Assembly (NCBI GenBank): GCA_029862005.1
Contig: JAOTYD010000006.1
Location: forward strand, 69,758-133,757
Reading direction: 5' to 3'
Length of the DNA stretch: 64,000 nt
DNA from: Gammaproteobacteria bacterium
GTDB lineage: Bacteria > Pseudomonadota > Gammaproteobacteria > GCA-001735895
Numbering within the stretch: the first letter of the stretch is position 1; every line of letters begins with the position of its first letter. A model generated the notes under the pieces. It saw nothing but the letters and a program-made list of their open reading frames with translations, ran no database searches and had not been told where the DNA came from. The position numbers and the translations under genes were made by a program. Positions 17,497-59,887 of this stretch are shown one piece after another.

Positions 17497-17951
17497 TTAC
17501 CCTGCTCGTTTTCTTCCAGCAGCTGTTTTGCTTCGGCCATTGCAGCGGCGTCCACTTCGACCGGCTTCTGGGCATTACGCAACCTGCGAACAAGCAGATA
17601 AAGAACCAGCAGCAATAACAGGAAAGGTCCCAGCCAAAGCAGGTAAGTCGTCGATTTGAATTGAGGACGGTAAAGCACGAAGTCGCCATAACGGGTGACC
17701 ATGAATTCGACCACCTGTTGTGGGGATTTGCCCTGCTGCAGCATCTCGTAGGTTTCGCGGCGCAGGTCACGAGCGAGGTCAGCATCGGAACCCGAAAGGT
17801 TCTGGTTCTGGCATACCAGGCAGCGCAGTTCGTCGATGAGTTTCTTGTAGTCTGCCTCCATCTGTTCAGACTCGAACTCGTAGGCCTCGATCGCGGCCTG
17901 CACCGGTACGACCCAGAGCACCAACATGAGCATCAGTAGTAGCGACTTCAA
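17493..17951 (-). CDS. ccmH: cytochrome c-type biogenesis protein CcmH
   Basis: Signal peptide plus LRCLVCQNQ (CxxC) motif. The ORF-track start at 17951 is TTG (TTGA overlap with ccmG); alternative ATG at 17933. Confidence 0.85.
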   Translation of the reverse strand: MKSLLLMLMLVLWVVPVQAAIEAYEFESEQMEADYKKLIDELRCLVCQNQNLSGSDADLARDLRRETYEMLQQGKSPQQVVEFMVTRYGDFVLYRPQFKSTTYLLWLGPFLLLLLVLYLLVRRLRNAQKPVEVDAAAMAEAKQLLEENEQGK

Positions 17952-18472
17952 CTCAGCAGCTCCCTGAGAACAGGCATAATTTTCTGCTCCAGCGATTCAT
18001 GCGTAACCGGACCAATATGCTTGTACTTGATCAGTCCGTCGGCGCCGATGACAAAGGTTTCCGGCACCCCGTAAACACCCCAGTCGATTCCAACTCGGCC
18101 ATCGCGATCGATAACGCTGGTGGCATAGGGATTGCCAAACTGCTGCAACCACCGGATTGCGTCATCCGGTTCATCCTTGTAGTTGAGCCCGACCACGGTA
18201 ACCAGGTTTTTGCGCGCAAGCGCCGAGATCACTGCATGCTCGGCACGGCAGGATACACACCACGAGGCCCATACGTTAAGTACCCAGACCTGTCCTGTCA
18301 TGTCCGCAGTCGAAAGCTGCCGGGTCGGATTATCCAGCATCGCCAGTGAAAACGACGGTGCCGGTTTATCGATCAGCACTGACGGCACTTTCTTGGGATC
18401 AAGACGCAGGCCGTAGCCGAGCAGACCGACCATTAGTACGAATACCGCAAGCGGCAGGATAAAACGATTCAC
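17948..18472 (-). CDS. ccmG: thiol:disulfide interchange protein CcmG/DsbE
   Basis: WASWCVSC thioredoxin motif plus GVYGVPETF. GTG start overlapping the ccmF stop. Confidence 0.9.
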   Translation of the reverse strand: MNRFILPLAVFVLMVGLLGYGLRLDPKKVPSVLIDKPAPSFSLAMLDNPTRQLSTADMTGQVWVLNVWASWCVSCRAEHAVISALARKNLVTVVGLNYKDEPDDAIRWLQQFGNPYATSVIDRDGRVGIDWGVYGVPETFVIGADGLIKYKHIGPVTHESLEQKIMPVLRELLS

Positions 18473-20439: not shown

Positions 20440-20441
20440 CG

Positions 20442-20876
20442 CTAGTTTTCCTTTTTCATTTTCATTTTCATGTCGGCAAGCTCCGGCGGCATGTAAGTTT
20501 CGTCGTGCTTGGCCAACACTTCCTGGGCGACAAATTCGCCGGAATCATTCAACTTGCCATTGGCGATGATGCCCTGGCCCTCGCGAAACAGGTCAGGCAA
20601 TATTCCAGCGTATTGAACAGTTACCTGCTGTTCATTGTCAGTCAAATCGAACTTCACGGTCAGGCCGTCACCCGGGCGGTTGACGCTGCCTTCGACCACC
20701 ATGCCACCCATTCGAAACAGCTTGTTGGTGGGCGCCTTGCCGGAGATTACTTCGCTGGGTGTAAAAAAGAACATGATATTCTGATCCAGCGATTTGAGTG
20801 CGAGCCCGACGCCAACAGCCACGCCGGTAACCATCAACAGGATTAACGCGAGTCTTTTCTTTCTTGCAGGTGTCAT
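20442..20876 (-). CDS. ccmE: heme chaperone CcmE
   Basis: 144 aa, N-terminal anchor plus OB fold. Confidence 0.93.
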   Translation of the reverse strand: MTPARKKRLALILLMVTGVAVGVGLALKSLDQNIMFFFTPSEVISGKAPTNKLFRMGGMVVEGSVNRPGDGLTVKFDLTDNEQQVTVQYAGILPDLFREGQGIIANGKLNDSGEFVAQEVLAKHDETYMPPELADMKMKMKKEN

Positions 20877-21031
20877 TTCTGTTCATCCCTTGTGCGCCGC
20901 TTCAGCTGGCGCAGTTCTTTCTCGTGTTGCTTGCGCGGCAGGTACCAGTTCAGCCACAGCACCACTGCGACCAGTGCATAGCTTGGCCAAACAAAAACTG
21001 CATATCCGCCCATTTGGAAAAATTCTGCCAT
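20873..21031 (-). CDS. ccmD: heme exporter protein CcmD
   Basis: 52 aa single-TM protein (MAEFFQMGGYAVFVWPSYALVAVVLWLNWY...) found by manual translation between ccmC and ccmE. Its stop overlaps the ccmE ATG (ATGA). It is absent from the ORF track because it is shorter than 60 aa. Confidence 0.75.
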   Translation of the reverse strand: MAEFFQMGGYAVFVWPSYALVAVVLWLNWYLPRKQHEKELRQLKRRTRDEQK

Positions 21032-21757
21032 TTAAAGTTCCTCAACCCACTTGCTGTTGCGTTCGCGCCGCAACAACTCCAGGCGACACTTCTGAAACAG
21101 GGCCAGAACGTAGTAGATCTGGAAAGCCATCGCCATTAGCAGCAACGGGATCAACATGCTCCAGTGTATAGACGGCTTGTCGAACTTGGTAACGGTCGGC
21201 CCCTGGTGTAACGAATGCCACCACTCTACCGAGTAATGGATAATAGGAATATTCACCACGCCGACCAGCGCCAGGATTGCGACCGCCCGGGCAGCGATAC
21301 GTCGATCATCGATAGCATTGTGAAGCCCGATAATGCCGAGGTACAGGAACAGCAGGATAAGTTCAGATGTCAGGCGCGCATCCCAGACCCAGTAAGTGCC
21401 CCACATCGGTTTGCCCCACAACGAACCGGTGACCAGCGCTAGAAAGGTGAAGCTGGCACCAATCGGCGCACTGCTGATCAATACCACCTCGGCCAGTTTC
21501 ATGTGCCAGATTATAACTATGGCGCCACAAATCGCCATGACAACATAGATAAACAACGACATCCAGGCCGAGGGCACGTGGACAAAAATAATGCGATAGC
21601 TTTCACCCTGCTGGTAGTCGGGTGGTGCTTCGATTAAACCACCGTAAAGACCCGTCAGCAAGAACGCGAGAAAGATCCACGTTAACCATGGGATCCATTT
21701 ACCGGCAATGCGATAAAAGTGCGGGGGCGAACCTAACTTGTGAAACCAGAGAAACAT
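21032..21757 (-). CDS. ccmC: heme exporter protein CcmC
   Basis: WWD-domain membrane protein. ATG at 21757 (MFLWFHKLGSPPHFYRIAG...). Confidence 0.9.
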   Translation of the reverse strand: MFLWFHKLGSPPHFYRIAGKWIPWLTWIFLAFLLTGLYGGLIEAPPDYQQGESYRIIFVHVPSAWMSLFIYVVMAICGAIVIIWHMKLAEVVLISSAPIGASFTFLALVTGSLWGKPMWGTYWVWDARLTSELILLFLYLGIIGLHNAIDDRRIAARAVAILALVGVVNIPIIHYSVEWWHSLHQGPTVTKFDKPSIHWSMLIPLLLMAMAFQIYYVLALFQKCRLELLRRERNSKWVEEL

Positions 21758-21767
21758 TAAGATCCCT

Positions 21768-22454
21768 TTAACTTGCCGACATTCGTAACGCTGCTGCGGT
21801 GGCCCAGGGCGACAGCGAAATCGACAGGAACAGAAAAGCCAGAAGCATGTAAATCTGGGCTGATACGTCAAATCCCATCGCGGCATTTTCGATCGCGCTG
21901 GCCGCAAAAATCAAAACCGGCACATACAGGGGCAACACCAACAGCGACAGAATTATACCACCTTTTCTTAAGCCTACCGTAAGCGCGACACCGATCGCGC
22001 CGATGAGGCTCAAGATTGGGGTTCCGATGAGTATAGTCAATAGCAGCGTTATCTGCGCCGCCGATGGCAAGCCCAGCATTTCTGCCAGTAATGGCGCCAC
22101 GATCAGCAAAGGTAATCCGGTGACCAGCCAGTGTGCGCACACTTTCGCCAACACCAGTACCGCAACGGGATGCGCACTCAACAGAATCTGTTCGAGCGAG
22201 CCATCGTCAAAATCCGAGCGAAAGATGCTATCCAGCGACAACATCGCCGCGAGCAATGCAGCGACCCAGACAATCCCTGGCGCAATTCGCGCCAGCAGCT
22301 CGGGTTCGGCACCCAGCGCCAATGGAAAAAGAGTAATGACCAGCACAAAAAATAACAGCGGCATCGCGTACTCGGCGCGATTGCGCAGGGCCAACAGCAG
22401 GTCACGCCTGAGCAGAAACACGAAAGCCTGGGTCAGGGATAATCGATGACTCAT
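21768..22454 (-). CDS. ccmB: heme exporter permease CcmB
   Basis: 228 aa, 6-TM CcmB pattern. Confidence 0.9.
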   Translation of the reverse strand: MSHRLSLTQAFVFLLRRDLLLALRNRAEYAMPLLFFVLVITLFPLALGAEPELLARIAPGIVWVAALLAAMLSLDSIFRSDFDDGSLEQILLSAHPVAVLVLAKVCAHWLVTGLPLLIVAPLLAEMLGLPSAAQITLLLTILIGTPILSLIGAIGVALTVGLRKGGIILSLLVLPLYVPVLIFAASAIENAAMGFDVSAQIYMLLAFLFLSISLSPWATAAALRMSAS

Positions 22455-23083
22455 GCCGGTGCTCCGAGTTGAAGTCGCTGCACGGATTGTCCCGGCAGCG
22501 AAATATCGTGATGTGATGTCATCACAATCAGACCCTGGTTCTCCAGGTGATGTTCAAACAGTGAAGCGAACATCGCCATGCTGTTTCTGTCGAGCGAGGT
22601 AAACGGCTCATCCAGAATCCACAGTATTGATTCCGTCGCCAGCAGACGGGCCAGCGCCAGTCTGCGTTTCTGACCCGCCGACAGGCTGCCTACCTCGGTT
22701 TCACCGTAGGCGTAGAGGTTAACCTGCTCGAGTACGTCGTCGAGATCCCGCTCCGACGGCACGCCCATTGCTCTCGCCAGGCGCATGTTTTCGAGACAGG
22801 ACAGTTCGTTCTTGACACCGTCGTGATGCCCTACATAGGCTACCTGTTCGTAATAATTTCCAGCCAGGCGGTCAATCGGAGTACCGCGCCATCGAATCTC
22901 GCCACTATCAGCGAGCCTGAGTCCGGTCAGAATACGTAACAGGCTGGTTTTACCGCAACCGTTGGGGCCTTCGACCACCAGCATCTCGCCCGCTTCGAGT
23001 GCGAATTCGAGGTTCGCGAACAATTGACGATCGTTACGGATACAGCCGAGATCCCGGGTTTCGAGTAAGGTCGATGTGGACAT
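22451..23083 (-). CDS. ccmA: heme exporter ATP-binding protein CcmA
   Basis: Walker A GPNGCGKTS and ABC signature LSAGQKRR. Confidence 0.9.
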   Translation of the reverse strand: MSTSTLLETRDLGCIRNDRQLFANLEFALEAGEMLVVEGPNGCGKTSLLRILTGLRLADSGEIRWRGTPIDRLAGNYYEQVAYVGHHDGVKNELSCLENMRLARAMGVPSERDLDDVLEQVNLYAYGETEVGSLSAGQKRRLALARLLATESILWILDEPFTSLDRNSMAMFASLFEHHLENQGLIVMTSHHDISLPGQSVQRLQLGAPA

Positions 23084-24806: not shown

Positions 24807-26102
24807 ATGTGGAAAAATCTTGGCGCTTCCTGGGCGATATTAATTGGCATCGGATGCATGATGCTAGCCAATGGCCTGCAGGGTACCCTGCTGGGTGTGC
24901 GCGCCGGCATCGAGGGATTTTCGACGTTCACAACCGGGATATTGATGTCGGGATATTTCATCGGCATGTTTATCGGTTCGCTGGTGTCACCAATGCTGGT
25001 CAATCGAGTTGGCCATATTCGTGTGTTTTCGGCACTCGCGTCGATGGCCTCCATTTCAATCCTGTTTCACGGCGTTTATATCGAGCCGTGGATCTGGATG
25101 CTGATGCGCATCATTACCGGAATCAGTTTTGCCGGGTTCTACGTGGTAACCGAGAGCTGGCTCAACGACCGGGCCAGTAATGAAACCCGTGGCAAGGTGT
25201 TATCGGTATACATGCTCATTGTTACCGGCGGCATGGGCGCTGGTCAGTTTTTACTCAACCTTGCAAAACCCGAAGCGATTGATTTGTTCATACTGATTTC
25301 CGTGATCATATCATTTGGGCTGATTCCAATACTGCTAACGGCCAAGCCCGCGCCAAACTTCGCCACGTCGTCCAAGATGTCGGTAGTCGACCTGTATCGC
25401 GCCTCACCGCTGGCCGTTATCGGCAACTGCCTGACGGGAATGGCTCATGGTACGATTTTCGGGCTGGGAGCAATTTATGCGAGCGCGGTACTGGTCGACC
25501 TTAAGGCAATCTCGTGGTTCATGGCCTGCTTCCTGATTGGCAGCCTGATATTCCAGTGGCCCGTCGGATTTATCTCCGACCTCGTCGGCAGACGTGGCAT
25601 CATGGCCGGTCTGTCGAGCATTGCTATCGCCTGCTGTTTACTCGCGCTCGCTACACCGAGTGACAGCTGGCTGTTTTACGCATCGATCATCGCCCTCGGC
25701 GGCGCCGCAATGCCGATGTACTCGGTTTGTATTGCTTACGCCAACGATCGACTGGAACCACATCAAATCGTTGCCGCCAGTGGCAGCCTGGTCATGGTCG
25801 CAGGTTTTGGTGCAATGATCGGGCCTATTGTAATCGCCTTTTTCATGGACCTGTACGACCTGTCATTTTATTTCTGGGGTATCGCGACGGTATTCGCGAT
25901 TATCTTCTTTTTCACCTTGATCCGCATCGGCTCCCGTGCCGGAGTCGCAATAGCTGATCAATCGCACCTGATCGCTGGCCCTATTGGTACCCCGATTGCC
26001 GAGTTTATCGCACCCGATTCGTTCGAATACGCGGACGCCGTCGCAAAGCACAATGTGCGGGAGCTCGATCAACGCGAAGACATTACCGAGCGTCGGCTAT
26101 AG
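24807..26102 (+). CDS. MFS transporter
   Basis: 431 aa, 12-TM, major facilitator pattern. Confidence 0.88.
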   Translation: MWKNLGASWAILIGIGCMMLANGLQGTLLGVRAGIEGFSTFTTGILMSGYFIGMFIGSLVSPMLVNRVGHIRVFSALASMASISILFHGVYIEPWIWMLMRIITGISFAGFYVVTESWLNDRASNETRGKVLSVYMLIVTGGMGAGQFLLNLAKPEAIDLFILISVIISFGLIPILLTAKPAPNFATSSKMSVVDLYRASPLAVIGNCLTGMAHGTIFGLGAIYASAVLVDLKAISWFMACFLIGSLIFQWPVGFISDLVGRRGIMAGLSSIAIACCLLALATPSDSWLFYASIIALGGAAMPMYSVCIAYANDRLEPHQIVAASGSLVMVAGFGAMIGPIVIAFFMDLYDLSFYFWGIATVFAIIFFFTLIRIGSRAGVAIADQSHLIAGPIGTPIAEFIAPDSFEYADAVAKHNVRELDQREDITERRL

Positions 26103-26106
26103 CGAT

Positions 26107-27711
26107 TTAAAGCGTCCACCGCAGATCGAGCGTGAAGATGTCCTCGTCACCGATATCGTCACCGATTTCCTTTAACGGATGTCCCCAAAGCAGGCGACCA
26201 TTGAAGTTTGCATCCGATACTTCAATCCCTACACCAACACTGTAAATTTCTCCACAAACATCTGGATTGTCGACTTCACATTTGGCATCGCCATAGTCGA
26301 CGCCGGCCGACAGAGAAATTGTTTTGGTGAAAGGGTTTCCACTGAAGGGATTCACCACCGACCGTAATTGTCGGGTCAGGTTACTGTGCAGATACCAGGC
26401 ATTGCTTCCACTCAGTGACGACGAATAGCCACGCACGGTGTAGGGGCTGCCCAGGTACAGCTTATCGTTATCGAACAGTATATCGTCACTGTATTGCAGG
26501 TATAGCTTGATGCTCGCGTACCAGGCAGGATCAGGCAGGTAATAAAACAGCTGGCTGTCGATATTGAATTTTTCAAATTGAAGTCTTGCTTCATTTTCAA
26601 ACCCATCCGCGAGCGTGTAGTAGTCATCGTCTCTGGCCCCGAAGGAATCAAGCCCCCGGTGATAACTGAAACCGGTGCTGAGCTGACCCCATGGTTGTAT
26701 CCAGTCGTGCCGCAGATCGAGTCGCAGCTGGCTGGTTTTATAGCTGGAAACATCAATTAGCTGGTCATCAAAAAAACTGCGCGTGTCCTTAAGCTCCAAT
26801 GCCAACGCCAGGGTCAGCCTGGCCGTCTGGCTACGGGTTAGCAGCTTGCTGACCTGTAGCTGATTGCTGACAGTATCACCCTCGGAAAGAAAACTGTCGT
26901 TGATTCCCTGTACCCGTTGTTCATATTCGATATCGCTATGATTCAATAGCAGCAGGTAATCCCCCAGGGGAAAAGAGTAACTTAACTCGCGACTTCGATT
27001 ACTTTGATAGGTCTGAAATATTTCACCGCCGTTATAGCGAAACTCTATTATGTCATTGATATTGAAAGGATTATCGAGGGTTGCCAGTAAACTCAACTGG
27101 GGATCGATATCCGTTCGCACATTGATTCCAAGCTCGGTGCGAACCGTATCCGACTCCGTGGTCCTGATCGCTACGATGCTGCCACCCTGTTGTGTCCCCG
27201 GCCTGATCTCGAAACTGGCGCTGACCGAGGCCACGCGCTCGATGGCCTCAAGCGAAGTCTCAAGTTCGCGCAGGTTTAGAATCTCGCGGTTGAACATGAA
27301 AGCCGTCGCGATCTTGCCATTGCTGGTACCGCTATTGGCATCGATGATCGCCTCGACTCTGCCCACCAGGATACGAATCTCGATCTGACCATCGCTGATA
27401 TCCTGTTCCAGTAAATAAGGACGTGAGGTGACATAGCCTCGCCCGATAAAGTCATTCGAGATTGCTGACAGAATGCCTCGAATCAGGCTGCCATCGATAC
27501 AGTTGCCGAGGAATGGTCGGATCAATGATGCCTGGCCGGCATCGCTGAGAATTTCGCTGGCCTCAATATCCACCCTTGCCAGGGGGACACATTCAGCTTC
27601 GCTTGCCGCGTGTACCACGCCCTGCAGCAACAGGCTGAGTAGAACTACCCTAAAACCAGATTGACGTAAAAAGGCGCGTGACGGTAGCGTCAAAACTGTA
27701 AAGCGGTTCAT
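26107..27711 (-). CDS. Omp85-superfamily TpsB/ShlB/FhaC-like outer-membrane transporter (POTRA plus beta-barrel), orphan
   Basis: Signal peptide, POTRA-like N-region, C-terminal barrel carrying the conserved L6-loop VRGY motif (GSPYTVRGYSSS). ATG 27711 preferred; TTG 27717 also possible. Confidence 0.72.
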   Translation of the reverse strand: MNRFTVLTLPSRAFLRQSGFRVVLLSLLLQGVVHAASEAECVPLARVDIEASEILSDAGQASLIRPFLGNCIDGSLIRGILSAISNDFIGRGYVTSRPYLLEQDISDGQIEIRILVGRVEAIIDANSGTSNGKIATAFMFNREILNLRELETSLEAIERVASVSASFEIRPGTQQGGSIVAIRTTESDTVRTELGINVRTDIDPQLSLLATLDNPFNINDIIEFRYNGGEIFQTYQSNRSRELSYSFPLGDYLLLLNHSDIEYEQRVQGINDSFLSEGDTVSNQLQVSKLLTRSQTARLTLALALELKDTRSFFDDQLIDVSSYKTSQLRLDLRHDWIQPWGQLSTGFSYHRGLDSFGARDDDYYTLADGFENEARLQFEKFNIDSQLFYYLPDPAWYASIKLYLQYSDDILFDNDKLYLGSPYTVRGYSSSLSGSNAWYLHSNLTRQLRSVVNPFSGNPFTKTISLSAGVDYGDAKCEVDNPDVCGEIYSVGVGIEVSDANFNGRLLWGHPLKEIGDDIGDEDIFTLDLRWTL

Positions 27712-28828
27712 TTCCAACCGTCCCCGCCTTGGTCAGGTCGCGGAAATCGTCATAGTCGAAGCTTATGAAATCGAGCTGCAGGTTCAGACTGCCACGTTCA
27801 ACCGCACTCCAGGACCGGCCAAATTCGTAACTTGCACCCAGGCCAACAGTAGTGCTAGAAAAGGTGCTCAATTCCTTGTCACGTGCGAGGAAATTCAGTG
27901 CACCCCTGCTCGGGAACAAGTCGCTGTAGAATTCGGCGCTGCTTTGATCGTGATATCGAAAACTGGCCTCGACAATCCAGGCGTCACCGTAGGGGAAGGT
28001 ATACCCCAGCTCGTAGGTGGTCGCGTCGATATCCCAGGTATCTTCGAATATTCGAACCCCAGCATGTAACGCGGCACGTTGTGGCAGAAAATAATTGGCG
28101 CGCACGGCAATAGCGTTGCTAGTGCGGGTATCCGGATAGATTTCCGGCTCAAAGCTATAGCTAGTGCATGCTGGTGGATCACTACAAAATCGTACCGAAC
28201 GATAGGGATTATTGAGATAACCATCATCGGTTATCGTTTCCAGGGTTAAAGCCATGACCAGATCCTTGGTCAGGATTTGCGAAATCCCAAACCGATAGCT
28301 GCGCACCTTGGTGTCTTCTTCAAAAGCATCATCCCCATTTCGTCCAACTGTATTATCACCCAGCGCAAAGCTCATGGTGACGGTGGTCAGGTCACCAAAC
28401 ATGTCCTGCGAAATCCCGAGACTTAATGTATTAGCCTCGAAGTCACTTTCATCGCTAACCGTATAGCCGAGACTCATGGTTGTCTTTTGACGCAGGTAAT
28501 CGATGCTGACAGAATTTTCTGTGCGTTCCTCGGTGTACTCGCTTGCACTAACGAGCACATCAACCGAGGCACTGGTGACATTATCGACATAGTGATTCAA
28601 GCCTACTGATAGGCTATCACCCACATTCTTGCGCACCAGAAACGATGGTCCATCGATTTCGGCGCCACCACCATCGTATCGATGGTAGAGCAGGTCCACG
28701 CGCTCTTCCGGCAATACAGCGGCTCGCAATTCCTGGATGGACGATACCAACAGGGAGATAACCACCAACAGCCAACTGGATGATTTCACGAAAGCATGAC
28801 ATTGCTTGGTGGCGGTCATATTTACCAT
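27650..28828 (-). CDS. DUF3570-like outer-membrane beta-barrel protein
   Basis: About 390 aa, signal peptide, alternating beta-strand pattern ending in an aromatic residue (...SIWF). Family assignment is from memory of the DUF3570 size and context. ATG 28828 is preferred over GTG 28885. Confidence 0.55.
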   Translation of the reverse strand: MVNMTATKQCHAFVKSSSWLLVVISLLVSSIQELRAAVLPEERVDLLYHRYDGGGAEIDGPSFLVRKNVGDSLSVGLNHYVDNVTSASVDVLVSASEYTEERTENSVSIDYLRQKTTMSLGYTVSDESDFEANTLSLGISQDMFGDLTTVTMSFALGDNTVGRNGDDAFEEDTKVRSYRFGISQILTKDLVMALTLETITDDGYLNNPYRSVRFCSDPPACTSYSFEPEIYPDTRTSNAIAVRANYFLPQRAALHAGVRIFEDTWDIDATTYELGYTFPYGDAWIVEASFRYHDQSSAEFYSDLFPSRGALNFLARDKELSTFSSTTVGLGASYEFGRSWSAVERGSLNLQLDFISFDYDDFRDLTKAGTVGNEPLYSFDATVTRLFTSIWF

Positions 28829-28865: not shown

Positions 28866-29090
28866 CTAATTGCAGCCGCATCCACCGCCTGTTGCTATGC
28901 CCGCGCCCCTTGCGCCCTCACGAGAATCATAAACATGATGTATATAGCTTGCCGATACCGGATCTCGGTTGAAGCTCATGATGGGGTCTGCGAGATTGGC
29001 GCGTTCGTAGGGCTTGACCCAGGGCTCGATCGCACAACCCCCCAGAATAAAGACACTACTAATTAATGCAAATGCGATTTTCTTTTGCAT
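28866..29090 (-). CDS. DUF4266-like small lipoprotein (C-terminal GGGCGCN)
   Basis: 74 aa with lipobox LGGC and an unusual Cys/Gly C-terminal tail. Confidence 0.55.
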   Translation of the reverse strand: MQKKIAFALISSVFILGGCAIEPWVKPYERANLADPIMSFNRDPVSASYIHHVYDSREGARGAGIATGGGCGCN

Positions 29091-29094
29091 CTTT

Positions 29095-29607
29095 TTACTC
29101 GCGCACCAGTTTTTTCACCATCTTGCGATACTTCTCTTCATCGCCCGGCTTGTAACCCTTATGCAGATAGCGCACGTTGCCATCACGGTCGAGGACAACC
29201 GTGGTCGGCATCGCGATCACATTGTATTTCTTACTGACCAGGTTGTTGTTATCCAGCAATACCGGAAAATCAACCGGGAAGTTCTTGAGGAATCCCCGCG
29301 CTTTCTTGACGTCCTCTTCGACATTAACGCCGAGCACGGTAAATCCGAGCGGTTCATACTTATTATGCAGGTTGTTCAGCAAAGGCATTTCTTCTCGGCA
29401 GGGGCCGCACCAGGACGCCCAGAAATTAATCAGGACCACGTTACCCGTCAATTCGCTGAGTTTGAGGTTTTTACCGGTAAGCGACTTTAACGTGAAATTC
29501 GGCGCCGGACCCTTTAACGAGGCCGCGTGCGAGAGATTTAATCCTGCAAACGATAAAAAACACAGCAGTAACAAGCTGATTCCGGTTCGCGATAACATGC
29601 TGTTCAT
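29095..29607 (-). CDS. TlpA-like periplasmic thioredoxin (redoxin family)
   Basis: Signal peptide plus WASWCGPC. Strong RBS AGGAGA. Confidence 0.88.
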   Translation of the reverse strand: MNSMLSRTGISLLLLCFLSFAGLNLSHAASLKGPAPNFTLKSLTGKNLKLSELTGNVVLINFWASWCGPCREEMPLLNNLHNKYEPLGFTVLGVNVEEDVKKARGFLKNFPVDFPVLLDNNNLVSKKYNVIAMPTTVVLDRDGNVRYLHKGYKPGDEEKYRKMVKKLVRE

Positions 29608-29619
29608 ATCTAATCTCCT

Positions 29620-30273
29620 TTAGAAAAATAAGTTAAATGCCACTGTTAGTTCAATATTGTGGGTCGTTTCCTCGCTGCCGAAGAGGTCCTGCTCGAAGAT
29701 CAAGTCTCGCATTTCAATGTCGAGGCTGAAGCCGTCGGCAAACAAGGTGCGATGCCCTACTGCATAAGCGATGGTAAATCGATCATCGCCCGCAAATTCC
29801 GTGTTACCCACACCCGCAGACAGATAAAGCACAGTATTGAATGTAGTTGAATCGGTTAAAAATGCCTCCCCGGGGAACAGGTTGAATCCAAGGGAAACGA
29901 TGTAGTACTCGACTTCCCGCTCCTCATTGGACAACAGGGGGGCACCGCCACTCAGAATCTCGAAGCTGGTCTTTCCGGAGTCGCCGAGGCCGTAGGAAGC
30001 CTGCACGAAAAAATCTTCAGAAACGTTATAACCAAGCTTGATACCTTTCACGAGATCGGTATCAAAATCCTCGAGCGCCAGGTAACCTACGTAAACAGCG
30101 ATTTCAAAATCGTCTGAATCGATCTGGGATTCATCGAACTCGATACGCTCGATCTGAGGCTCGATCAGACTAGATTGATCCTCTTCATCACTCTGCGCAG
30201 CAACCTGGGTCACCGGCATCATTGCGATCAACCAAGCACTCGCTAGAAAAATACTGCGAAACCGAATTTCCAC
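29620..30273 (-). CDS. outer-membrane beta-barrel (OmpA-like / porin-family barrel domain) protein
   Basis: GTG start with signal peptide (MEIRFRSIFLASAWLIAMMPVTQVAA); amphipathic beta strands ending in ...AFNLFF. Confidence 0.6.
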   Translation of the reverse strand: MEIRFRSIFLASAWLIAMMPVTQVAAQSDEEDQSSLIEPQIERIEFDESQIDSDDFEIAVYVGYLALEDFDTDLVKGIKLGYNVSEDFFVQASYGLGDSGKTSFEILSGGAPLLSNEEREVEYYIVSLGFNLFPGEAFLTDSTTFNTVLYLSAGVGNTEFAGDDRFTIAYAVGHRTLFADGFSLDIEMRDLIFEQDLFGSEETTHNIELTVAFNLFF

Positions 30274-31118
30274 TCGTTTACTACCTCGCTGTTGTCACTG
30301 GTGCCGGATGAAAAAATTACATACTCGTTAGCCTCGAATCGAAACAGAAAACTGCGGCTGACATAGCGTTGCAATCCCAGACCAAATTGCGCAAAGCTAT
30401 TTTTATCGTCTCTTGCTGAAATCAGGATAACACTGGGATCAACCTCAATCTCACCCAATCCAAGAGTGAGATAAGGCGAGTACTTAAAATCCGGAAACGG
30501 CTGCATTACCAGATTTCCCTTGTAGAATGTACTACTCGATTTATCGCCTACTGACTTCCCAAAATGAAACTCACCCGTCAGGTTCTCGGAAAACGAATAT
30601 CCGGTAAACAGAGTAAACACCGGAGCCGATTCAAATTCACCGCCGGTATATCCCAGGATCCACTTGCGCTGGGTAAAATCTTCCAGATCGGACTCGACAA
30701 CCCTGAACTTTTCGCCGGTGAGTAGAAGTGTTTCCCGCATCTGATCACGACTCGCCCACCCGGTCTTGCCTGTGCTGGTTTCGATTCTGAACCAGTCGGT
30801 TTTGCGTCTGATAACACTGACCTCGGTGCCTCGATCAACCACGTAAAAAATCGGGTAGCCTGCGCCTGGGCCGGTATGCAGCTCGATAAAAGGATCAGCG
30901 ATTTTAACCTTGTAATAAACCTTTCCTTCCGCATCAATATTTTTCTCAGGCGCGACTTCACTCTCAGCTGTCCTTTTCGATGCTCCCTCTTCCATTACGG
31001 TAGGTGCTTTTTGTGCCACCAGGATATCTGCGTCGATCGATTGCGACTGTGACGGTCTGGAAGCGACAAATAGCAAAAGAAACAGGCTGGGCAAAAGTAT
31101 CCCCTTGAGACGTTTCAA
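30243..31118 (-). CDS. secreted SH3b-domain protein fused to an outer-membrane beta-barrel domain
   Basis: TTG start with signal peptide. Bacterial SH3-like segment (YYKVKIADPFIELHTGPGAGYPIFYVVDRGTEVSV...WFRIE...GWASRDQM) followed by a barrel ending ...GFAVFF. Confidence 0.6.
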   Translation of the reverse strand: MKRLKGILLPSLFLLLFVASRPSQSQSIDADILVAQKAPTVMEEGASKRTAESEVAPEKNIDAEGKVYYKVKIADPFIELHTGPGAGYPIFYVVDRGTEVSVIRRKTDWFRIETSTGKTGWASRDQMRETLLLTGEKFRVVESDLEDFTQRKWILGYTGGEFESAPVFTLFTGYSFSENLTGEFHFGKSVGDKSSSTFYKGNLVMQPFPDFKYSPYLTLGLGEIEVDPSVILISARDDKNSFAQFGLGLQRYVSRSFLFRFEANEYVIFSSGTSDNSEVVNEWKFGFAVFF

Positions 31119-31149: not shown

Positions 31150-33975
31150 CTAGTTTTGTGGCGCCGCCGGGTCAAAAGGATCATTAAAGTTCTGGGCGCC
31201 TAAATCTATCCACTCTGAGATTAGCTTTAATTCGGCACCTGTCAACATAGTCGTATGATCGACACTGCCCACCGGCAATGCGCGCCCGGCGTCCAGCTCG
31301 GTTCCGGTCATCTTTTCAATGAAAAAGCTGCTGCGGGCACCAGCCGAAGTCATGATCGGAGCGATCGCAGCTGCCGGGTCGGGAATTGTACCGCCGATGC
31401 CGTCGGGCACAGTAAACTGCTCGAGCATACCCCCCGCATTGATGAACTGGCCCTGCCTGGTGTTAAACATTTGTTGATAAGACCTGAAACGATCGTTCGG
31501 GTCCTGGTTGGGATCGGTGGTCAAATCGAGCTGCCCATAGGGTAGGCGTGTACCGTTGTTAGTGGTGTGACAGCTAATACAGGTATCGTCACCGACGCCA
31601 TCGGCCACCGCCACTGACACCAGTGGCGTATTGGTCGGGTCGTTGTTTGGTGGATTGACCGGATCCATCGGCGTAATGGCGTCAACAGCGCCGCGATTAA
31701 GCTGGAAAATCGCGTGAATATGGGGTGGATAATGGATTGCCACACGGCAATTGTAGAGCCAGTTGGGAGCGCAAAAGGTATTAGTCGGCCTCAACATGCC
31801 GGGGCTCAGATCGGCATAAAGATAATCGATATCCGGGTCTGGAGTGCTTATGCCGGGATCGGTCCAGTAATCTCGGTATATCAGGTCAGCGCTGAGCTTC
31901 GGTTGATTGGCGACCGCAAGGCTATCGAAACGTACCTCCGCCATGGTTTGCCCGGGAGTACCCATGTAAGGACTAGCTGGCATCGAGCCTGGAATCAAAG
32001 TATTGACGAATATCCCACCAGCCGGCAGACCGCTATTGATCGATGGCGCCTCGCCATCGCTGCGCGCATGAATTTCGGGCGGACTACCGCCATTGTTGAC
32101 GTCATGACAACCGACGCAGGTTAGCATATCTCCCGGTTGCACCTGGAACCAGTTCTCATGCGACGGGCCAATCCTGCGACCTTCACCATCGAGCACCTCG
32201 ACCGCTAACGGGACATAGGCCGGAACTTTGACCTTGACCGAACCGTCGGGTTCGACCGGCGCGTAGCCGACGATCTCGCGCATACCCCGATTACGTTGCG
32301 GTCCAAACGCATTGCCATCAAGGTCCGGTGGGTTGACCAGCGTCGGGTCATCGGGATCGGGTATTCCGACCGACTTTACGAAACGCACGAAACGGGCGGG
32401 ACGATCGACTGCGGCGGAATTCACCGGATCGGCAAAATCCTGTACCGAGGTAATGCCGAGGCCAGCGGGCGCGCATTCGGTAAAGAAACAACCGTTAAAC
32501 GCGGGATCGCTCAAATCGTAAACGCTTTTGATATTGACCACGCCAACGACTTCGGTCTCCCAGCCAGGATCAAGCTCACCGAGCAGGCTCTTGTCGAAGA
32601 TAACCGGCGCCCGGGTTCTGTTCTCGAGCGCAATGACGTCGGTGATAACCCTGCCCGCTTCCGCCAACACGATGGGTTTCTGGGTATCGACGTCCATATC
32701 GTAAATCCAGATCGAGTAAGAGGGCGACCTTTCCACGGCCGCTGGATCATTCACATATTCATCAAGACAGGGCCTTATTACACCATTGACGTCCACCTGG
32801 CAGGTGGATTTACTGACCAGCATGCGATTCGATCCATCCCATAACGGGTAAACCGTGGCATAGCGGCCGTTGGCTGAGATCGAACCATCGTTGGTGACAT
32901 TGGAGACGGTGGCATCACGCTGCGCCGGACCGGGCATGCCCGCCAGTGACCAGAGCGGCTTATTGATATCCACAAAGCGATCGACGCTGATAACCTCAAC
33001 ATTGCCGCCGTCGAAGGTTCCGTCAAACGGCTTGGTGATTACCATCAAGTCACCGTTTTCCATTTCGCGAAAATTGGTAAAGTGGATTTCTGCGCCGCCG
33101 GTGCCGGTATTGTGACTTTGCGATCCATATAGAATCTGCAAATCGCTGCCGTCCGGATTGACGGTGTATAAATTGATTTCGTCATTGCCGCCGGCATTGT
33201 CCCAACGACTGAATACTATTTTTCCACCCTTGAAACTGGTAAATACCTGCGGGTAAAGATCGTGGCTCTGGTTGAAGGAAATCTGCTTGATTTCGGTGCC
33301 GTCGGCATTCATGACGTGCAGCACCAAAGCCTGAACACCCTCGTCTTCGTCGAGTGCGGAAAATCTCGGCTTGCCTTCGTTGATCAGCATTTCGCGAGAC
33401 TGGCGCTGACGATTCGAGGAAAATACGATACGGCCATCGGGCAGGTAGCTGGGGAAAAGATCATCACCCTCCTCGGCAATCAGAGCGGTGGAGATAACTC
33501 GACGAAGTTGACTCGTGGTTAAATCGTATTCGTAAACATTCCAGCTGGGGAACGGGGGATTGTTCGGGTCGGGGTCGAACAGGCGCAGTGAAAAAACCAG
33601 CTTGGTGCCATCGTGGCTGGCGCTCAAGCCCTTGACGTCGCCGATACCGGTGGTAACGGAGCTCGTGATATTAATCTCGTTGTCGTTACTCCGCAGATAA
33701 ACATCGCCGCCGGAACTGAACAGCCTCGGCTCGCGCACATCGACCTGAACCTCGTCGCCCATGTCGTCTACCGGAATCGGACGCTTGACGTAAGCAATCG
33801 GGATTTCGATGATGCCGGGATCGATTCCTTCGCCTGAGTCGGATCCGGGATCACATGCGCTCAGGGCGACGACTGCGGTGCATATTACAGCTAATCCTAA
33901 CCAGTGAAACTGGAATTCCATCAACTGCCTGGATCTCGTCAGAATGCGTGTATATAAGGCTGTCGTATGTTTCAT
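31150..33975 (-). CDS. lipoprotein with TolB-like PD40 beta-propeller and a C-terminal di-heme c-type cytochrome-like region
   Basis: Lipobox VALSAC. PD40-like repeats (DGTKLVFS, DGRIVFSSNR, KIVFSRWDNAGG). Two CxxCH modules: CVGCHDVNNGG at 32104-32118 and CISCHTTNNGT at 31567-31581. RBS AAGGA. Confidence 0.7.
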   Translation of the reverse strand: MKHTTALYTRILTRSRQLMEFQFHWLGLAVICTAVVALSACDPGSDSGEGIDPGIIEIPIAYVKRPIPVDDMGDEVQVDVREPRLFSSGGDVYLRSNDNEINITSSVTTGIGDVKGLSASHDGTKLVFSLRLFDPDPNNPPFPSWNVYEYDLTTSQLRRVISTALIAEEGDDLFPSYLPDGRIVFSSNRQRQSREMLINEGKPRFSALDEDEGVQALVLHVMNADGTEIKQISFNQSHDLYPQVFTSFKGGKIVFSRWDNAGGNDEINLYTVNPDGSDLQILYGSQSHNTGTGGAEIHFTNFREMENGDLMVITKPFDGTFDGGNVEVISVDRFVDINKPLWSLAGMPGPAQRDATVSNVTNDGSISANGRYATVYPLWDGSNRMLVSKSTCQVDVNGVIRPCLDEYVNDPAAVERSPSYSIWIYDMDVDTQKPIVLAEAGRVITDVIALENRTRAPVIFDKSLLGELDPGWETEVVGVVNIKSVYDLSDPAFNGCFFTECAPAGLGITSVQDFADPVNSAAVDRPARFVRFVKSVGIPDPDDPTLVNPPDLDGNAFGPQRNRGMREIVGYAPVEPDGSVKVKVPAYVPLAVEVLDGEGRRIGPSHENWFQVQPGDMLTCVGCHDVNNGGSPPEIHARSDGEAPSINSGLPAGGIFVNTLIPGSMPASPYMGTPGQTMAEVRFDSLAVANQPKLSADLIYRDYWTDPGISTPDPDIDYLYADLSPGMLRPTNTFCAPNWLYNCRVAIHYPPHIHAIFQLNRGAVDAITPMDPVNPPNNDPTNTPLVSVAVADGVGDDTCISCHTTNNGTRLPYGQLDLTTDPNQDPNDRFRSYQQMFNTRQGQFINAGGMLEQFTVPDGIGGTIPDPAAAIAPIMTSAGARSSFFIEKMTGTELDAGRALPVGSVDHTTMLTGAELKLISEWIDLGAQNFNDPFDPAAPQN

Positions 33976-39969: not shown

Positions 39970-40989
39970 ATGTCTGAATCTCTGGCAGGCAAAGCCAATG
40001 GTTTGCCTCGGCAGACATTAGCCTCGTCTATCTTTACGATAATTCTCCTGTGTAGCCAAACGACGGCGCACGCCGAATGGCATCAACAGCAGCGCGACAT
40101 CATGGGAACCCGGGTTTCAGTTGAACTCTGGCATGATGAAGCCACAACCGCATCCAGATGCAGTGAAAAGGTTTTCACCGAAATGCGTCGCATCGAAGCA
40201 AGGATGAGCTCATATAAAAGCGACAGTGAGCTTTCATTTATCAATGACAACGCCGCGATGAACGCGGTCAAAATCAGTGATGAAATGATGCATCTGATTA
40301 AAAGATCGATTCACTTCTCCGAGGTTTCGAAAGGCGCGTTCGATATCACTTATGCCAGCGTCGGCTATGCCTACGACTACCGTAAACGCCAGCAGCCCAG
40401 CAATGAATCTATCTCGGAGAAACTGCCAGCTATCGACTATCATCATATTATGATTTCCGGAGATGAGATTCAGTTTGGCAACGATGCGGTACGTATCAAC
40501 CTCGGCGGCATCGCCAAGGGTTACGCGGTCGATCGTGCTGCCGATATTATCGGCCAGTGTGGCATCACCGAGGCCATGGTAAGTGCGGGCGGTGACAGCC
40601 GTATCATCGGAGATCGCAAGGGTCGCCCCTGGGTCATGGGTATCAAGCATCCTCGCGACCCTGAGGGCATTGCGATACGTCTGCCGCTCAGCGAAAGCGC
40701 GATTTCAACGTCGGGTGATTACGAGCGGTTTTTTATTGACGACGGCAAACGCGTGCATCACATTATCAATCCCGCCACCGGCCGCTCCGCGACGGCCAGC
40801 TGGAGTGCAACCGTCGTCGGCCCCGATGCCCTGACAACTGACGCTTTATCTACTACTATTTTTATTCTGGGTGCAGTCGACGGAATTACCCTGATTGAAA
40901 CCCTGGAAGGAATCGACGCCATCATTATCGATAGCGATGGAAAAGTGCATTACTCCTCTGGCTTTGAAGTACCTGAAGTCAAACAATAA
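39970..40989 (+). CDS. apbE: FAD:protein FMN transferase (ApbE family)
   Basis: Lipoprotein-like signal; the ApbE fold signature is spread along the protein. Confidence 0.85.
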   Translation: MSESLAGKANGLPRQTLASSIFTIILLCSQTTAHAEWHQQQRDIMGTRVSVELWHDEATTASRCSEKVFTEMRRIEARMSSYKSDSELSFINDNAAMNAVKISDEMMHLIKRSIHFSEVSKGAFDITYASVGYAYDYRKRQQPSNESISEKLPAIDYHHIMISGDEIQFGNDAVRINLGGIAKGYAVDRAADIIGQCGITEAMVSAGGDSRIIGDRKGRPWVMGIKHPRDPEGIAIRLPLSESAISTSGDYERFFIDDGKRVHHIINPATGRSATASWSATVVGPDALTTDALSTTIFILGAVDGITLIETLEGIDAIIIDSDGKVHYSSGFEVPEVKQ

Positions 40990-41011
40990 TCGCCCAAAAT
41001 CTAGCAGACCT

Positions 41012-57122: not shown

Positions 57123-57440
57123 ATGTCGGAGCATTACCTCGTGATTACATCCTGGCCCGATATTGAGGGAGCCAGACATCAGGCCATGAACTGGCTGCAA
57201 AATAAACTTGCGGCGAGTGTAAACATTTTGCCGCAAATGGACTCTATATATCATTGGAAAGGTGAGCTACGACAGGGTAAGGAACATAAGATTTTCATAA
57301 AAACGAGCGCTGACCGCATCGATGCACTGCAACGGGAAATTAGAGCCGCTCATCCGTATGCCGTAGCCGAAATCTTACAGTTTGAGATAGACTCTGGCGA
57401 ACCCGATTATCTGGACTGGATTACAGCTTCGACGAGATGA
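57123..57440 (+). CDS. cutA: divalent-cation tolerance protein CutA
   Basis: 105 aa CutA1 fold; precedes dsbD as in the E. coli cutA locus. Confidence 0.88.
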   Translation: MSEHYLVITSWPDIEGARHQAMNWLQNKLAASVNILPQMDSIYHWKGELRQGKEHKIFIKTSADRIDALQREIRAAHPYAVAEILQFEIDSGEPDYLDWITASTR

Positions 57441-59887
57441 CGATACTGCGACCTATCTTTGGAATTTTTCTAATCCTGTTGCTGGCCTACAGCCAGCTGC
57501 TGCAAGCCCAGGAAGAGGAACTGCTGCCGCCCGAGCAAGCCTTCGCGCTACAGGCGTGGGTCGATGGCGATGCATTGGTGGCGGAATATAAAATTGCGCC
57601 CGGATATTACATGTACCGCGAACGTTTCGATTTCCAGATCGAAGCGGGCGACGCGCCGGTGCGCTTTGGCACTGCACAAATTCCCAAAGGCAAGATCAAG
57701 GTCGATGAATTCTTCGGCGCAATGGAGACCTACCGCGACCGCGTATTAATAAAGCTACCGCTGGTCTACCAGGCCACTCCGGCGAGCCAATTACAGGTCA
57801 AGGCGGTAAGCCAGGGCTGCGCCGACATCGGGGTTTGTTACCCGCCACTTAAGCAGGTGCTTAAAGTCAACCTGGCGTCGACTGCACGCATTACCCCGAC
57901 TGCCTGGGTCGCAACTGACGTTGGCAACGAGACCGTCAGCGATGACGTTGCGGCCTTGCAAGCGCTACTGGGTGAAGTTACCGAAAACCTTGGAAACCAG
58001 CAACAATCGCAAAGCATCGATAGCGACACGGGTTCGGATGCGCTTGCCATTTTACAGGACCTCGGAGCGGACATCGGGCTCAGCGATGAGGACGAAATTC
58101 TGCACCCCGACCAGGCTTTTATCCTGTCGGCCCGGCTCGATGCCAACAATATCATTCAGTCGAATATCCTATTGGCCGAAAATATATACGTTTATCGGGA
58201 CAAAATTCGGATCGCGGTGGTCGAAGGACAGGGTCATTCGCTTGGGGCGATCTCGCTACCGCGCGGGAAACAGAAGTACGATGAATTCTTCGGCGATACC
58301 GAAGTCATCTACGACCAGATCAATGTATCGATCCCGGTCATTTCCGACGCGGGGGCCAGTGACAAATTTGCTTTGTCTTATACCTACCAGGGCTGTGTCG
58401 AAGACCGCATTTGTTATCCGCCGATAACCAAGTACCTGGCGGTGGATGCCAGTCAAGGATTGCTCGAAGTACGACATGAAATGGCTGCAGGCAGCTCCAC
58501 CAGCGAGCAGCCGCAGAGCGGCGACAATCAGCCGGCGCCGATATCGGAACAGGATCAGTTCGCGCAGCTGTTAAGTAGCGGCAGCTTGTTGTTGATCATC
58601 AGCCTTTTTTTCCTGGCCGGCATCGGCCTTACCTTTACCCCTTGCGTGTTTCCGATGATTCCAATTTTATCCAGCATCATCGCCGGCCAGGGATCATCGA
58701 TAACCACGGGTAAGGCCTTTTTCCTGTCGCTGGTTTACGTGTTGTCGATGGCTGTAACCTACGCCGCTGCGGGCGCGATCGTCGGTTATTATGGTGCCGA
58801 GTTCAACATACAAATCTGGTTCCAGGATCCGATAATCTTGAGCCTTTTCGCGGCGATTTTCGTCCTACTTGCGCTGTCGATGTTCGGCTTTTACGAACTG
58901 CAAATGCCGAATGCAATCCAGTCACGCCTGACCGCGATCAGCAACAGCCAACAGGGCGGCACCTTGATCGGCGTGGGCCTGATGGGATTTTTCTCAGCGA
59001 TAATCGTGGGCCCCTGCATTACCGCACCTCTGGTCGGTGCCCTCATTTTCATTTCTCAAACCCAGGACTGGCAGCTCGGCGGGCTTGCGTTATTTGCACT
59101 CGGACTCGGTATGGGTGTGCCGCTGCTCGTAGTCGGTACCTCGGCGGGCAAATTGATGCCTCGCGCCGGTGGCTGGATGGACACGGTCAAAGCGGTATTT
59201 GGGGTCGTCCTGCTAGGTGTCGCTATCTGGTTGCTCGAACGAATTCTGCCGGTGGGCATGACCATGCTATTGATCGCGGCGTTGTTAATCGCTTCTGCGA
59301 TTTACATGGGGGCGCTGGATTCGCTCGGCGAAGCCGCATCCGGCTGGCAACGCTTTTCCAAATCGCTGGGATTACTGGTGCTGATCTATGGGATTGCTTA
59401 TCTGATTGGCGCCGCTGCCGGTAACAACGACTTGATACAGCCGCTGCGCGGCATCGTCGCCTCGACTGGCGGCAGTGGCGCAAATGCCTCGGAGCATGTC
59501 GTTTTTCGCCAGATCAAGGGTAAGCAAGGCTTACAGGTTGCGTTGCAAAATGCGGCCCAACTCAAGCGCGGCACCGTGCTCGATTTTTATGCCGACTGGT
59601 GTATTTCGTGCAAGGAAATGGAAAAGTACACCTTTTCCGATCCCGAGGTTCGCCAGGCACTCGAATCGCTGTCGCTAGTGCAGGCGGATGTCACCGCCAA
59701 CGACAGGATCGATGTCGAACTAATGTCTTCGTTGGGTATTTATGGCCCACCCGCAATCCTGTTTTACGATGCCAACGGCGAGGAAATCAAGGGTCGAAGA
59801 ATAGTCGGGTTCATGTCGGCCCAGAAATTCAGCGCCCACATTAAAAATACCTATAGTCAGCAATACGTTCGATTGAATGAATACTAG
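57437..59887 (+). CDS. dsbD: thiol:disulfide interchange protein DsbD
   Basis: Tandem duplicated N-terminal DsbD-alpha-like regions (CxxxxxC), an 8-TM core with Cys, and a C-terminal thioredoxin-like domain (WCISC). Confidence 0.9.
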   Translation: MTILRPIFGIFLILLLAYSQLLQAQEEELLPPEQAFALQAWVDGDALVAEYKIAPGYYMYRERFDFQIEAGDAPVRFGTAQIPKGKIKVDEFFGAMETYRDRVLIKLPLVYQATPASQLQVKAVSQGCADIGVCYPPLKQVLKVNLASTARITPTAWVATDVGNETVSDDVAALQALLGEVTENLGNQQQSQSIDSDTGSDALAILQDLGADIGLSDEDEILHPDQAFILSARLDANNIIQSNILLAENIYVYRDKIRIAVVEGQGHSLGAISLPRGKQKYDEFFGDTEVIYDQINVSIPVISDAGASDKFALSYTYQGCVEDRICYPPITKYLAVDASQGLLEVRHEMAAGSSTSEQPQSGDNQPAPISEQDQFAQLLSSGSLLLIISLFFLAGIGLTFTPCVFPMIPILSSIIAGQGSSITTGKAFFLSLVYVLSMAVTYAAAGAIVGYYGAEFNIQIWFQDPIILSLFAAIFVLLALSMFGFYELQMPNAIQSRLTAISNSQQGGTLIGVGLMGFFSAIIVGPCITAPLVGALIFISQTQDWQLGGLALFALGLGMGVPLLVVGTSAGKLMPRAGGWMDTVKAVFGVVLLGVAIWLLERILPVGMTMLLIAALLIASAIYMGALDSLGEAASGWQRFSKSLGLLVLIYGIAYLIGAAAGNNDLIQPLRGIVASTGGSGANASEHVVFRQIKGKQGLQVALQNAAQLKRGTVLDFYADWCISCKEMEKYTFSDPEVRQALESLSLVQADVTANDRIDVELMSSLGIYGPPAILFYDANGEEIKGRRIVGFMSAQKFSAHIKNTYSQQYVRLNEY

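Follow-up and report, generated by a model that had tools for sequence, protein, structure and literature searches.

A TpsB/CdiB-family transporter gene without an adjacent tpsA at the end of a DUF3570 operon in Gammaproteobacteria

Why should the gene for an outer-membrane transporter of the two-partner secretion (TPS) type stand at the end of a redox operon, with no gene for its secreted partner, TpsA, beside it? The question is raised by a tpsB-type gene at 26107..27711 (- strand) of a 64,000-nucleotide stretch of gammaproteobacterial DNA from contig JAOTYD010000006.1. We refer to this whole stretch as the window, and to the protein as ShlB, after its Pfam family. A preliminary description of the locus had presented the gene as an orphan TpsB that closes an operon encoding DUF3570, DUF4266 and TlpA proteins and a heme lipoprotein, and had proposed that it serves neighbouring barrels or cytochromes. 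Its observation was upheld, and its interpretation was upheld in part: family, orphan state and operon position all stood, and the proposal of a cargo among the neighbours was poorly supported. We conclude that the locus is an unusual arrangement of a known protein and not a new kind of machine, since TPS arrangements outside a single operon have already been noted (PMC5422565). The explanation that we favour, with somewhat less than even confidence, is that a CdiB/FhaC-type translocator was captured once behind DUF3570, lost its adjacent tpsA and was kept as a dispensable accessory, probably exporting a TPS-domain protein encoded elsewhere.

Family and architecture of the transporter

In the list of open reading frames (ORFs) the gene starts with ATG and encodes 534 aa plus a stop; an alternative TTG start two codons upstream would extend the ORF to 26107..27717 (- strand) and the protein to 536 aa. 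The parts of the gene are given below, with the source of each assignment in brackets.

26107..27711, - strand: tpsB/cdiB-like gene (ORF list, Pfam, PDB profile matches, AlphaFold2, Foldseek)
27607..27711, - strand: Sec signal peptide, residues 1-35, ...VHA/ASEAEC, cut after VHA (translation, N-terminal alignment)
27154..27591, - strand: two POTRA domains, residues ~41-186 (Pfam, model secondary structure)
26110..27153, - strand: predicted 16-stranded beta-barrel, residues ~187-534 (Pfam ShlB, AlphaFold2 model)
26425..26436, - strand: L6 hallmark motif VRGY, residues 426-429 (translation)
26290..26304, - strand: strand-13 motif GVDYG (F/GxDxG), residues 470-474 (translation)

Profile searches recovered the architecture that had first been proposed, a POTRA-bearing N-terminal region and a barrel with VRGY at L6. 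The Pfam family ShlB (PF03865; ShlB/FhaC/HecB) matched residues 178-498 over profile positions 1-309 of 311 (E=2.9e-55; 188.4 bits, cut-off 22.7), and POTRA_2 (PF08479) matched with E=4.3e-14 (52.6 bits, cut-off 24). POTRA_3 (PF17287) reached 25.0 bits, slightly under its cut-off of 27. PF01103 was not among the Pfam matches of the protein, and an NCBIfam search with it returned no matching model. TpsB proteins are defined by VRGY/F at the tip of L6 and F/GxDxG on strand 13, and a strand-13 motif of the GVDYG type is the partner of the L6 arginine (PMC5422565). Among 39 aligned homologues VRGY was invariant; in GVDYG, G470 was invariant, and D472 and G474 were conserved in at least 90%.

The AlphaFold2 model of ShlB (per-residue confidence, pLDDT, 81; predicted template-modelling score, pTM, 0.76) contains two beta-alpha-alpha-beta-beta POTRA units at residues 46-186 (pLDDT ~86-92), followed by 16 barrel strands, with L6 predicted between strands 11 and 12. 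Compared with the PDB, the family profile matched CdiB with E=4e-60 and 8.5e-48 and FhaC with E=8e-35. Foldseek ranked the folds with template-modelling (TM) scores, normalised to the query, of 0.80 and 0.76 for CdiB, 0.66-0.75 for FhaC and at most 0.52 for BamA/TamA. Because both the PDB profile ranking and the Foldseek ranking favour CdiB/FhaC, and PF01103 is lacking, sequence and model alike assign the protein to the TpsB class (CdiB/FhaC type) and not to the BamA/TamA paralogues, as the preliminary description had it.

CdiB (PDB 6WIM, 6WIL) gave the best sequence and fold matches to ShlB. The two proteins have in common two POTRA domains, a 16-stranded barrel and the VRGY motif at L6; alignment with 6WIM, a CdiB chain, shows the POTRA1 cysteine pair of ShlB there too, and the TpsA partners of ShlB's nearest canonical relatives are CdiA-like or resemble filamentous haemagglutinin (FHA). 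[quoted passage not shown] ShlB also differs from CdiB in missing an N-terminal H1 helix and linker of ~44 residues, and its gene is the terminal gene of a redox operon. The archetypal TpsB, FhaC of Bordetella pertussis (PDB 4QKY), resembles ShlB in Pfam family, in architecture and in the L6 and strand-13 motifs, but is just 14-16% identical to it in structural alignment, has the H1 helix and linker, both of which ShlB misses, and is encoded together with its cargo gene, fhaB.

The missing H1 was apparent from the N-terminus. POTRA1 starts 5 residues after the end of the signal peptide at A35 (with POTRA1 Cys41), so that the H1 plug helix and linker are missing, and in the profile alignment the CdiB chain has ~44 additional N-terminal residues before the region aligned to ShlB. 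The H1 plug and linker are predicted in most TpsBs; H1 can be dispensed with, whereas secretion by FhaC requires the linker (PMC5422565). In the N-terminal alignment H1 was likewise missing from two TpsA-linked relatives, P0119 and P0120, and because of this its absence is a trait of the subfamily and not of the orphan state. A further canonical TpsA-linked relative (P0118, from loci L005/L006) carries a ~90-aa N-terminal extension before POTRA1 that is absent in other relatives.

Cys41 and Cys71 in POTRA1 and Cys478 and Cys486 between strands 13 and 14 were also invariant in the 39 homologues. Each pair likely forms a disulfide, which is curious beside genes for TlpA and DsbD. Both cysteine pairs are common to the TpsA-linked relatives.

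The NCBI entry identical to ShlB, from a gammaproteobacterial metagenome-assembled genome (MAG), carries the name 'hypothetical protein OES20_06335'. TpsB/CdiB-family transporter would be a fitting name for the gene instead.

The missing tpsA and the history of the gene

The lack of a tpsA in the window had been stated at the outset, and our searches agreed with it. The TPS domain (PF05860) had no Pfam match in any window ORF of at least 250 aa, Fil_haemagg had none in the window ORFs scanned, and tblastn of the window with three TpsA proteins of the nearest canonical relatives gave a best E of only 4.8. The same three proteins had no tblastn match in 89 related loci. Nor did a partner lie just outside: the ~10 kb past each window end (contig 80.5-162.6 kb of 184.7 kb) contained unrelated genes and no TPS or ShlB gene. 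TpsA was not found at 43 metagenome and 15 genome loci orthologous to that of the window, and no TpsA remnant was found between ShlB and the downstream transporter gene at orthologous loci. This downstream gene, of the major facilitator superfamily (MFS), occupies the place that tpsA has in the canonical relatives.

24807..26102, + strand: convergent MFS transporter gene, ends 4 nt from the tpsB stop

A two-partner secretion system is recognised by a TpsA with an N-terminal TPS domain encoded beside tpsB, and none was present at the examined loci. A CDI system is recognised by CdiA and CdiI adjoining cdiB; the MFS gene is there instead.

Comparison with relatives pointed to the origin of the gene. 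The 117 best homologues in the protein database, with identities as low as 46%, were orthologues, and each one examined for context had the arrangement of the window. Behind the next relatives, at 41-44% identity, came genes for giant proteins that carry TPS and haemagglutinin-repeat domains (Pfam TPS ~1e-45). A metagenome scan yielded 43 loci in which ShlB was at least 50% identical to that of the window. TpsA was adjacent in none of these; where the relevant flank was available, DUF3570 lay upstream in 32/32 and the MFS gene downstream in 30/32. At the 23 metagenome loci with ShlB below 50% identity DUF3570 was upstream in none, and TpsA was downstream in 10 of the 12 with downstream sequence and adjacent in 13 overall. 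Among 15 genome orthologues of at least 50% identity TpsA was adjacent in none. All relatives with less than ~45% identity had a TpsA beside them. Because the relatives below 50% identity whose flanks are available adjoin a giant TPS-domain protein, the gene is a canonical tpsB from a cdiBA-like module that lost its adjacent tpsA. In the TpsB tree the stem of the orphan clade was moderate (0.12, against a crown depth of 0.28).

The gene shows the marks of continued use. Its ORFs were full-length and intact in ~60 loci (47-100% identity), and the ratio of nonsynonymous to synonymous substitution rates (dN/dS) at unsaturated pairs was 0.10-0.25, against 0.05-0.17 for neighbouring genes. Because the ORFs are intact and dN/dS is in this range, tpsB is read here as still under purifying selection and functional. 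Conservation was 0.51 in POTRA1 and 0.60 in POTRA2, against 0.54-0.56 in the barrel, and POTRA2 and L6 were the regions most similar to canonical relatives. Since the POTRA domains are conserved to the same degree as the barrel, and POTRA2 and L6 come nearest to the canonical relatives, substrate-binding capacity appears to be retained. Taken together, conservation, dN/dS and tree stem suggest neither decay nor a radical change of function.

The distribution of the gene was followed by scanning one genome per species with a DUF3570 alignment, which gave 80 gammaproteobacterial loci, including those of Thiodiazotropha, Alcanivorax, Paraglaciecola, Woeseiaceae, Steroidobacteraceae, Chromatiales and the Olavius Gamma3 symbiont. 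The core cluster at these loci has one arm encoding 437-aa, LamG and Tat-signal proteins and another encoding the heme lipoprotein, two outer-membrane proteins (OMPs), TlpA, DUF4266 and DUF3570. Most of it was present in 49/49 loci with sufficient upstream sequence, and TlpA in 42 of the 49. ShlB was present in 15/80 species loci and was missing in 62 loci with at least 400 bp downstream of DUF3570 (62/77 informative). Searching 10 kb either side of 65 ShlB-less loci with the ShlB profile revealed no other Omp85/TpsB gene. This result led us to reject the idea that other DUF3570 clusters had recruited a TpsB independently.

The loci with ShlB formed one clade in the DUF3570 tree (84/100 bootstraps) and also in the ShlB tree. 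Two ShlB-less genomes were nested inside this clade (100/100). In the Olavius Gamma3 symbiont (L016) the full cluster is kept, and the MFS gene starts 56 nt after DUF3570. The other (L093, CP070646.1 positions 2587680-2608789), a closed 3.72-Mb genome, keeps just a truncated TlpA, DUF4266 and DUF3570. Its TlpA is N-terminally truncated (130 aa, no signal peptide), and the locus is without the heme lipoprotein, both OMPs and ShlB, which suggests erosion of the cluster in this genome. DUF3570 is the last operon gene in the sister lineages, where housekeeping genes come next. Several cluster genes of L016, L063 and L073 were found in two or more fragments, which may be assembly frameshifts or real pseudogenes.

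A single gain is indicated because the loci with ShlB form one clade in both trees, and the most parsimonious history has one gain and two or more losses. Since 62 ShlB-less genomes keep the cluster and the two nested losses kept DUF3570, ShlB is an accessory, dispensable add-on and not a part of the core cluster. Foreign base composition of tpsB was ruled out: in GC content, overall and at third codon positions (GC3), the gene was no different from neighbouring operon genes.

Candidate roles of the orphan transporter

In the explanation that we favour, an ordinary tpsB-tpsA module would have landed once at the 3' end of the DsbD/ApbE-linked TlpA-DUF4266-DUF3570 operon, in the common ancestor of a single clade of uncultured sediment Gammaproteobacteria. 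After landing, the module would have lost its adjacent tpsA, and purifying selection would have kept tpsB, whose expression probably depends on the DUF3570 gene through readthrough or translational coupling. By the most likely mechanism, the standard one, an unfolded exoprotein would dock through its TPS domain on the periplasmic POTRA domains and be threaded across the outer membrane by the barrel, the TPS-domain cargo presumably being encoded elsewhere in the genome. In Pseudomonas aeruginosa the TpsA-like CupB5, whose gene lies elsewhere, is a further substrate of TpsB4/LepB. TPS genes lie mostly, not always, in one operon, and some TpsBs secrete more than one TpsA (PMC5422565). The difference is that in such non-operonic or multi-cargo systems the TPS-domain cargo is known, whereas in the window clade the loci searched yielded no such cargo and the whole clade shares the fixed orphan state. 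If the cargo is indeed encoded elsewhere, the locus would be one more non-operonic two-partner secretion arrangement, mainly of interest to annotators.

Several observations weigh against this explanation. No TpsA partner was found for any genome of the clade in a search that covered the window, its flanks and the orthologous loci, not whole genomes. The best 120 of 630 matches to a TPS-domain query from the nearest canonical partner included CdiA/FHA-like proteins of other taxa and no set that could be recognised as the clade's own. ShlB is without the H1 helix and linker of both FhaC and CdiB. Finally, tpsB never departs from its place behind DUF3570, which it usually overlaps (~60 loci, with ShlB down to 47% identity), and a fixed DUF3570-tpsB junction fits a role linked to the cluster better than an unrelated cargo. 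One protein met in the search for an unlinked TpsA of the clade, P0255, was set aside as belonging to an unrelated MAG.

The fixed junction is the strength of an alternative that we regard as unlikely, though worth keeping in view: the DUF3570 cluster would have co-opted the TpsB pore to move a cargo without a TPS domain, be it the 941-aa heme lipoprotein, DUF4266 or another cluster protein. ShlB lies immediately downstream of DUF3570 in 32/32 metagenome and 15/15 genome loci and commonly overlaps it by 26-62 nt. Three orthologous loci have other genes downstream (DoxX/GST/Fic, a beta-lactamase-fold protein and an amidase), and in L108 and L110, where the downstream gene differs and upstream sequence is sufficient, the DUF3570-ShlB junction is retained. 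Because this linkage survives a change of the downstream neighbour, co-option is kept alive. It also accords with the absence of TpsA from every orthologous locus, with long-lasting purifying selection on ShlB and with the joint loss from L093 of ShlB, the heme lipoprotein and the two OMP genes. Yet the cluster is complete without ShlB in most Gammaproteobacteria, no other Omp85/TpsB gene stands in for it at the 65 ShlB-less loci, and the Gamma3 symbiont lost ShlB with the whole cluster kept. Pfam detects a TPS domain in no cluster protein, and no domain gain in cluster proteins tracks ShlB. A TPS-like module gained by a cluster protein in the genomes with ShlB was considered and rejected: the only insertions were loops of 6-14 aa, and the ShlB-less L016 has the same ones. 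To our knowledge, no characterised TpsB moves a TPS-less cargo. The neighbouring barrels and cytochromes of the preliminary description fare poorly as cargo on these grounds: 62/77 informative genomes without ShlB keep the cluster, ShlB was lost twice within its own clade with DUF3570 kept, no cluster protein has a TPS domain or a domain that tracks ShlB, and the nearest outgroup transporters are ordinary tpsB-tpsA pairs. A stronger version is more doubtful still. In it a TpsB/CdiB pore would have been permanently recruited by a flavin/thiol/heme extracytoplasmic redox cluster and would move a TPS-less cargo, perhaps the heme lipoprotein or the CxC lipoprotein DUF4266, over the outer membrane. 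If true, type Vb transporters would have their first example with a substrate other than a TpsA, and redox proteins in sediment bacteria a new route to surface display. Were ShlB to serve the redox cluster, the type Vb substrate range would be broadened, and surface exposure of heme or flavin proteins would be indicated in abundant uncultured sediment Gammaproteobacteria.

The partner may instead be gone for good, the lone barrel being kept for another role, as a general channel or in an envelope function, and riding on operon transcription; we find this equally doubtful. TpsA was undetected in the window, the contig flanks and the orthologous loci, the missing H1 plug might leave a more open pore, and two losses of ShlB without loss of DUF3570 mark it as dispensable. 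However, H1 is also missing in the TpsA-bearing P0119 and P0120, and the POTRA domains, for which we know of no role besides substrate binding, are as conserved as the barrel; we also know of no precedent for a cargo-less TpsB function. A missing adjacent tpsA and loss of the gene in two lineages would equally be expected of a functionless, decaying relic of a degraded CDI/TPS locus, but such a relic is very improbable in the face of intact ORFs in ~60 loci at 47-100% identity, dN/dS of 0.10-0.25 and hallmark motifs that are all invariant. A pseudogene was ruled out by the ORFs and dN/dS. Least probable of all, and close to negligible, is an insertase of the BamA/TamA type for the assembly of the barrels encoded nearby, namely DUF3570 and the two small OMPs. 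ShlB is a member of the Omp85 superfamily, and three predicted beta-barrel proteins are encoded upstream of it, but it has no PF01103 match and two POTRA domains, not the three of TamA or the five of BamA, the TM scores were 0.71-0.80 for CdiB/FhaC against at most 0.52 for BamA/TamA, and the same barrels occur in 62 genomes without ShlB. A BamA/TamA paralogue was ruled out by the Pfam, PDB sequence and fold comparisons.

The operon and the redox cluster around the gene

The position of tpsB at the end of the DUF3570/DUF4266/TlpA/heme-lipoprotein operon was confirmed by common strand, tight spacing and a 62-nt overlap. The gene is the last of a same-strand series in which the six genes upstream follow one another with gaps of at most 31 nt or overlaps, in the order heme lipoprotein, SH3-OMP, OMP, TlpA-like, DUF4266, DUF3570, ShlB; its ATG sits 62 nt inside the 3' end of the DUF3570 gene. 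In orthologues this overlap is 26-62 nt, and one orthologue has a gap of 194 nt. From the gene layout we infer that the operon is co-transcribed; a promoter and terminator consensus scan of the operon gave results at or below chance. The genes upstream, and other parts of the cluster, are as follows.

31150..33975, - strand: heme lipoprotein, first operon gene, 941 aa, with PD40 propeller repeats, an HZS_alpha-like heme domain and two CxxCH (Pfam HZS_alpha E=4e-15)
30243..31118, - strand: SH3+OMP small outer-membrane beta-barrel gene (Pfam, NCBIfam)
29620..30273, - strand: OMP_myx_plus small outer-membrane beta-barrel gene (Pfam, NCBIfam)
29095..29607, - strand: TlpA/ResA-like periplasmic thiol-disulfide oxidoreductase, WASWCGPC (Pfam Redoxin, AhpC-TSA; NCBIfam ResA, TlpA)
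28866..29090, - strand: DUF4266 small lipoprotein, 74 aa, lipobox LGGC, C-terminal GGGCGCN (ORF; orthologues carry PF14086)
27650..28822, - strand: DUF3570 gene, protein end ...SIWF (Pfam DUF3570 E=2.3e-40)
28541-28582, - strand: presumed ApbE flavinylation sites, DUF3570 residues ~80-94 (alignment of 11 sequences)
39970..40989, + strand: ApbE flavin transferase, in the divergent cluster arm (Pfam ApbE E=3e-78)
57437..59887, + strand: DsbD (Pfam DsbD_TM, DsbD_N)

DUF3570 is a substrate of ApbE flavinylation; the genes with which it clusters encode ApbE, DUF4266, a thioredoxin-like protein and, in many cases, DsbD (Meheust et al. 2021, PMC8238504). All the components listed for these DsbD/ApbE-DUF3570 clusters were found in the window; the published description is without a TpsB, and the window ShlB is a clade-specific extra (15/80 genomes). 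The ApbE encoded at 39970..40989 presumably modifies DUF3570, and DsbD is presumed to be the electron donor for the TlpA/DUF4266/DUF3570 module. The presumed flavinylation sites of DUF3570, D-N-V-T-S-A-S and D-V-x-V-S-A-S, were invariant in 11 aligned sequences. They differ from the published motif [S/T]GA[S/T] (PMC8238504) in having Ser (TSAS, VSAS) where that motif has Gly. The AlphaFold2 model of DUF3570 (pLDDT 57.5, from a shallow alignment) was used for its all-beta secondary structure only. A second TlpA-like redoxin gene, at 59877-60410 (+ strand), directly follows DsbD.

In the 941-aa lipoprotein the heme domain is a match to hydrazine synthase alpha of anammox bacteria, namely to its heme-binding middle domain (PF18582, E=4e-15), and the host is a non-anammox gammaproteobacterium. 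The 542-aa protein encoded at 38317-39945 (+ strand) has a twin-arginine signal, TRRQFIRQG, and no Pfam match; it adjoins the LamG/CxxCH protein in nearly all related loci. These genes belong to a cluster of ~20 genes on both strands (window 29095-50000) that is conserved across many Gammaproteobacteria (L010-L089). Its members are the Tat-signal 542-aa, LamG/CxxCH 890-aa and 437-aa CxxCH proteins, the heme lipoprotein, two OMPs, TlpA, DUF4266, DUF3570, ApbE, a 241-aa protein, three TPR proteins and ExbB/ExbD/ExbD/TonB-like genes. Several of them are without a Pfam match, and the DUF3570 cluster may merit study more than the transporter.

The arrangement of the cluster varies at the 3' end of DUF3570. 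In L036-L039 the ApbE, 241-aa and TPR genes lie directly 3' of DUF3570, whereas in the window clade this block (39970-46934, + strand) stands in the divergent arm, after the 542-aa gene. Since its position differs, the 3' end of DUF3570 is a rearrangement breakpoint, and it is the tpsB insertion site as well. On the other side of tpsB, ~3 kb from its end, lies a complete System I cytochrome c maturation operon (ccmA-H/I; 16282-23083, - strand), which stays linked to the cluster in distant orthologous contigs.

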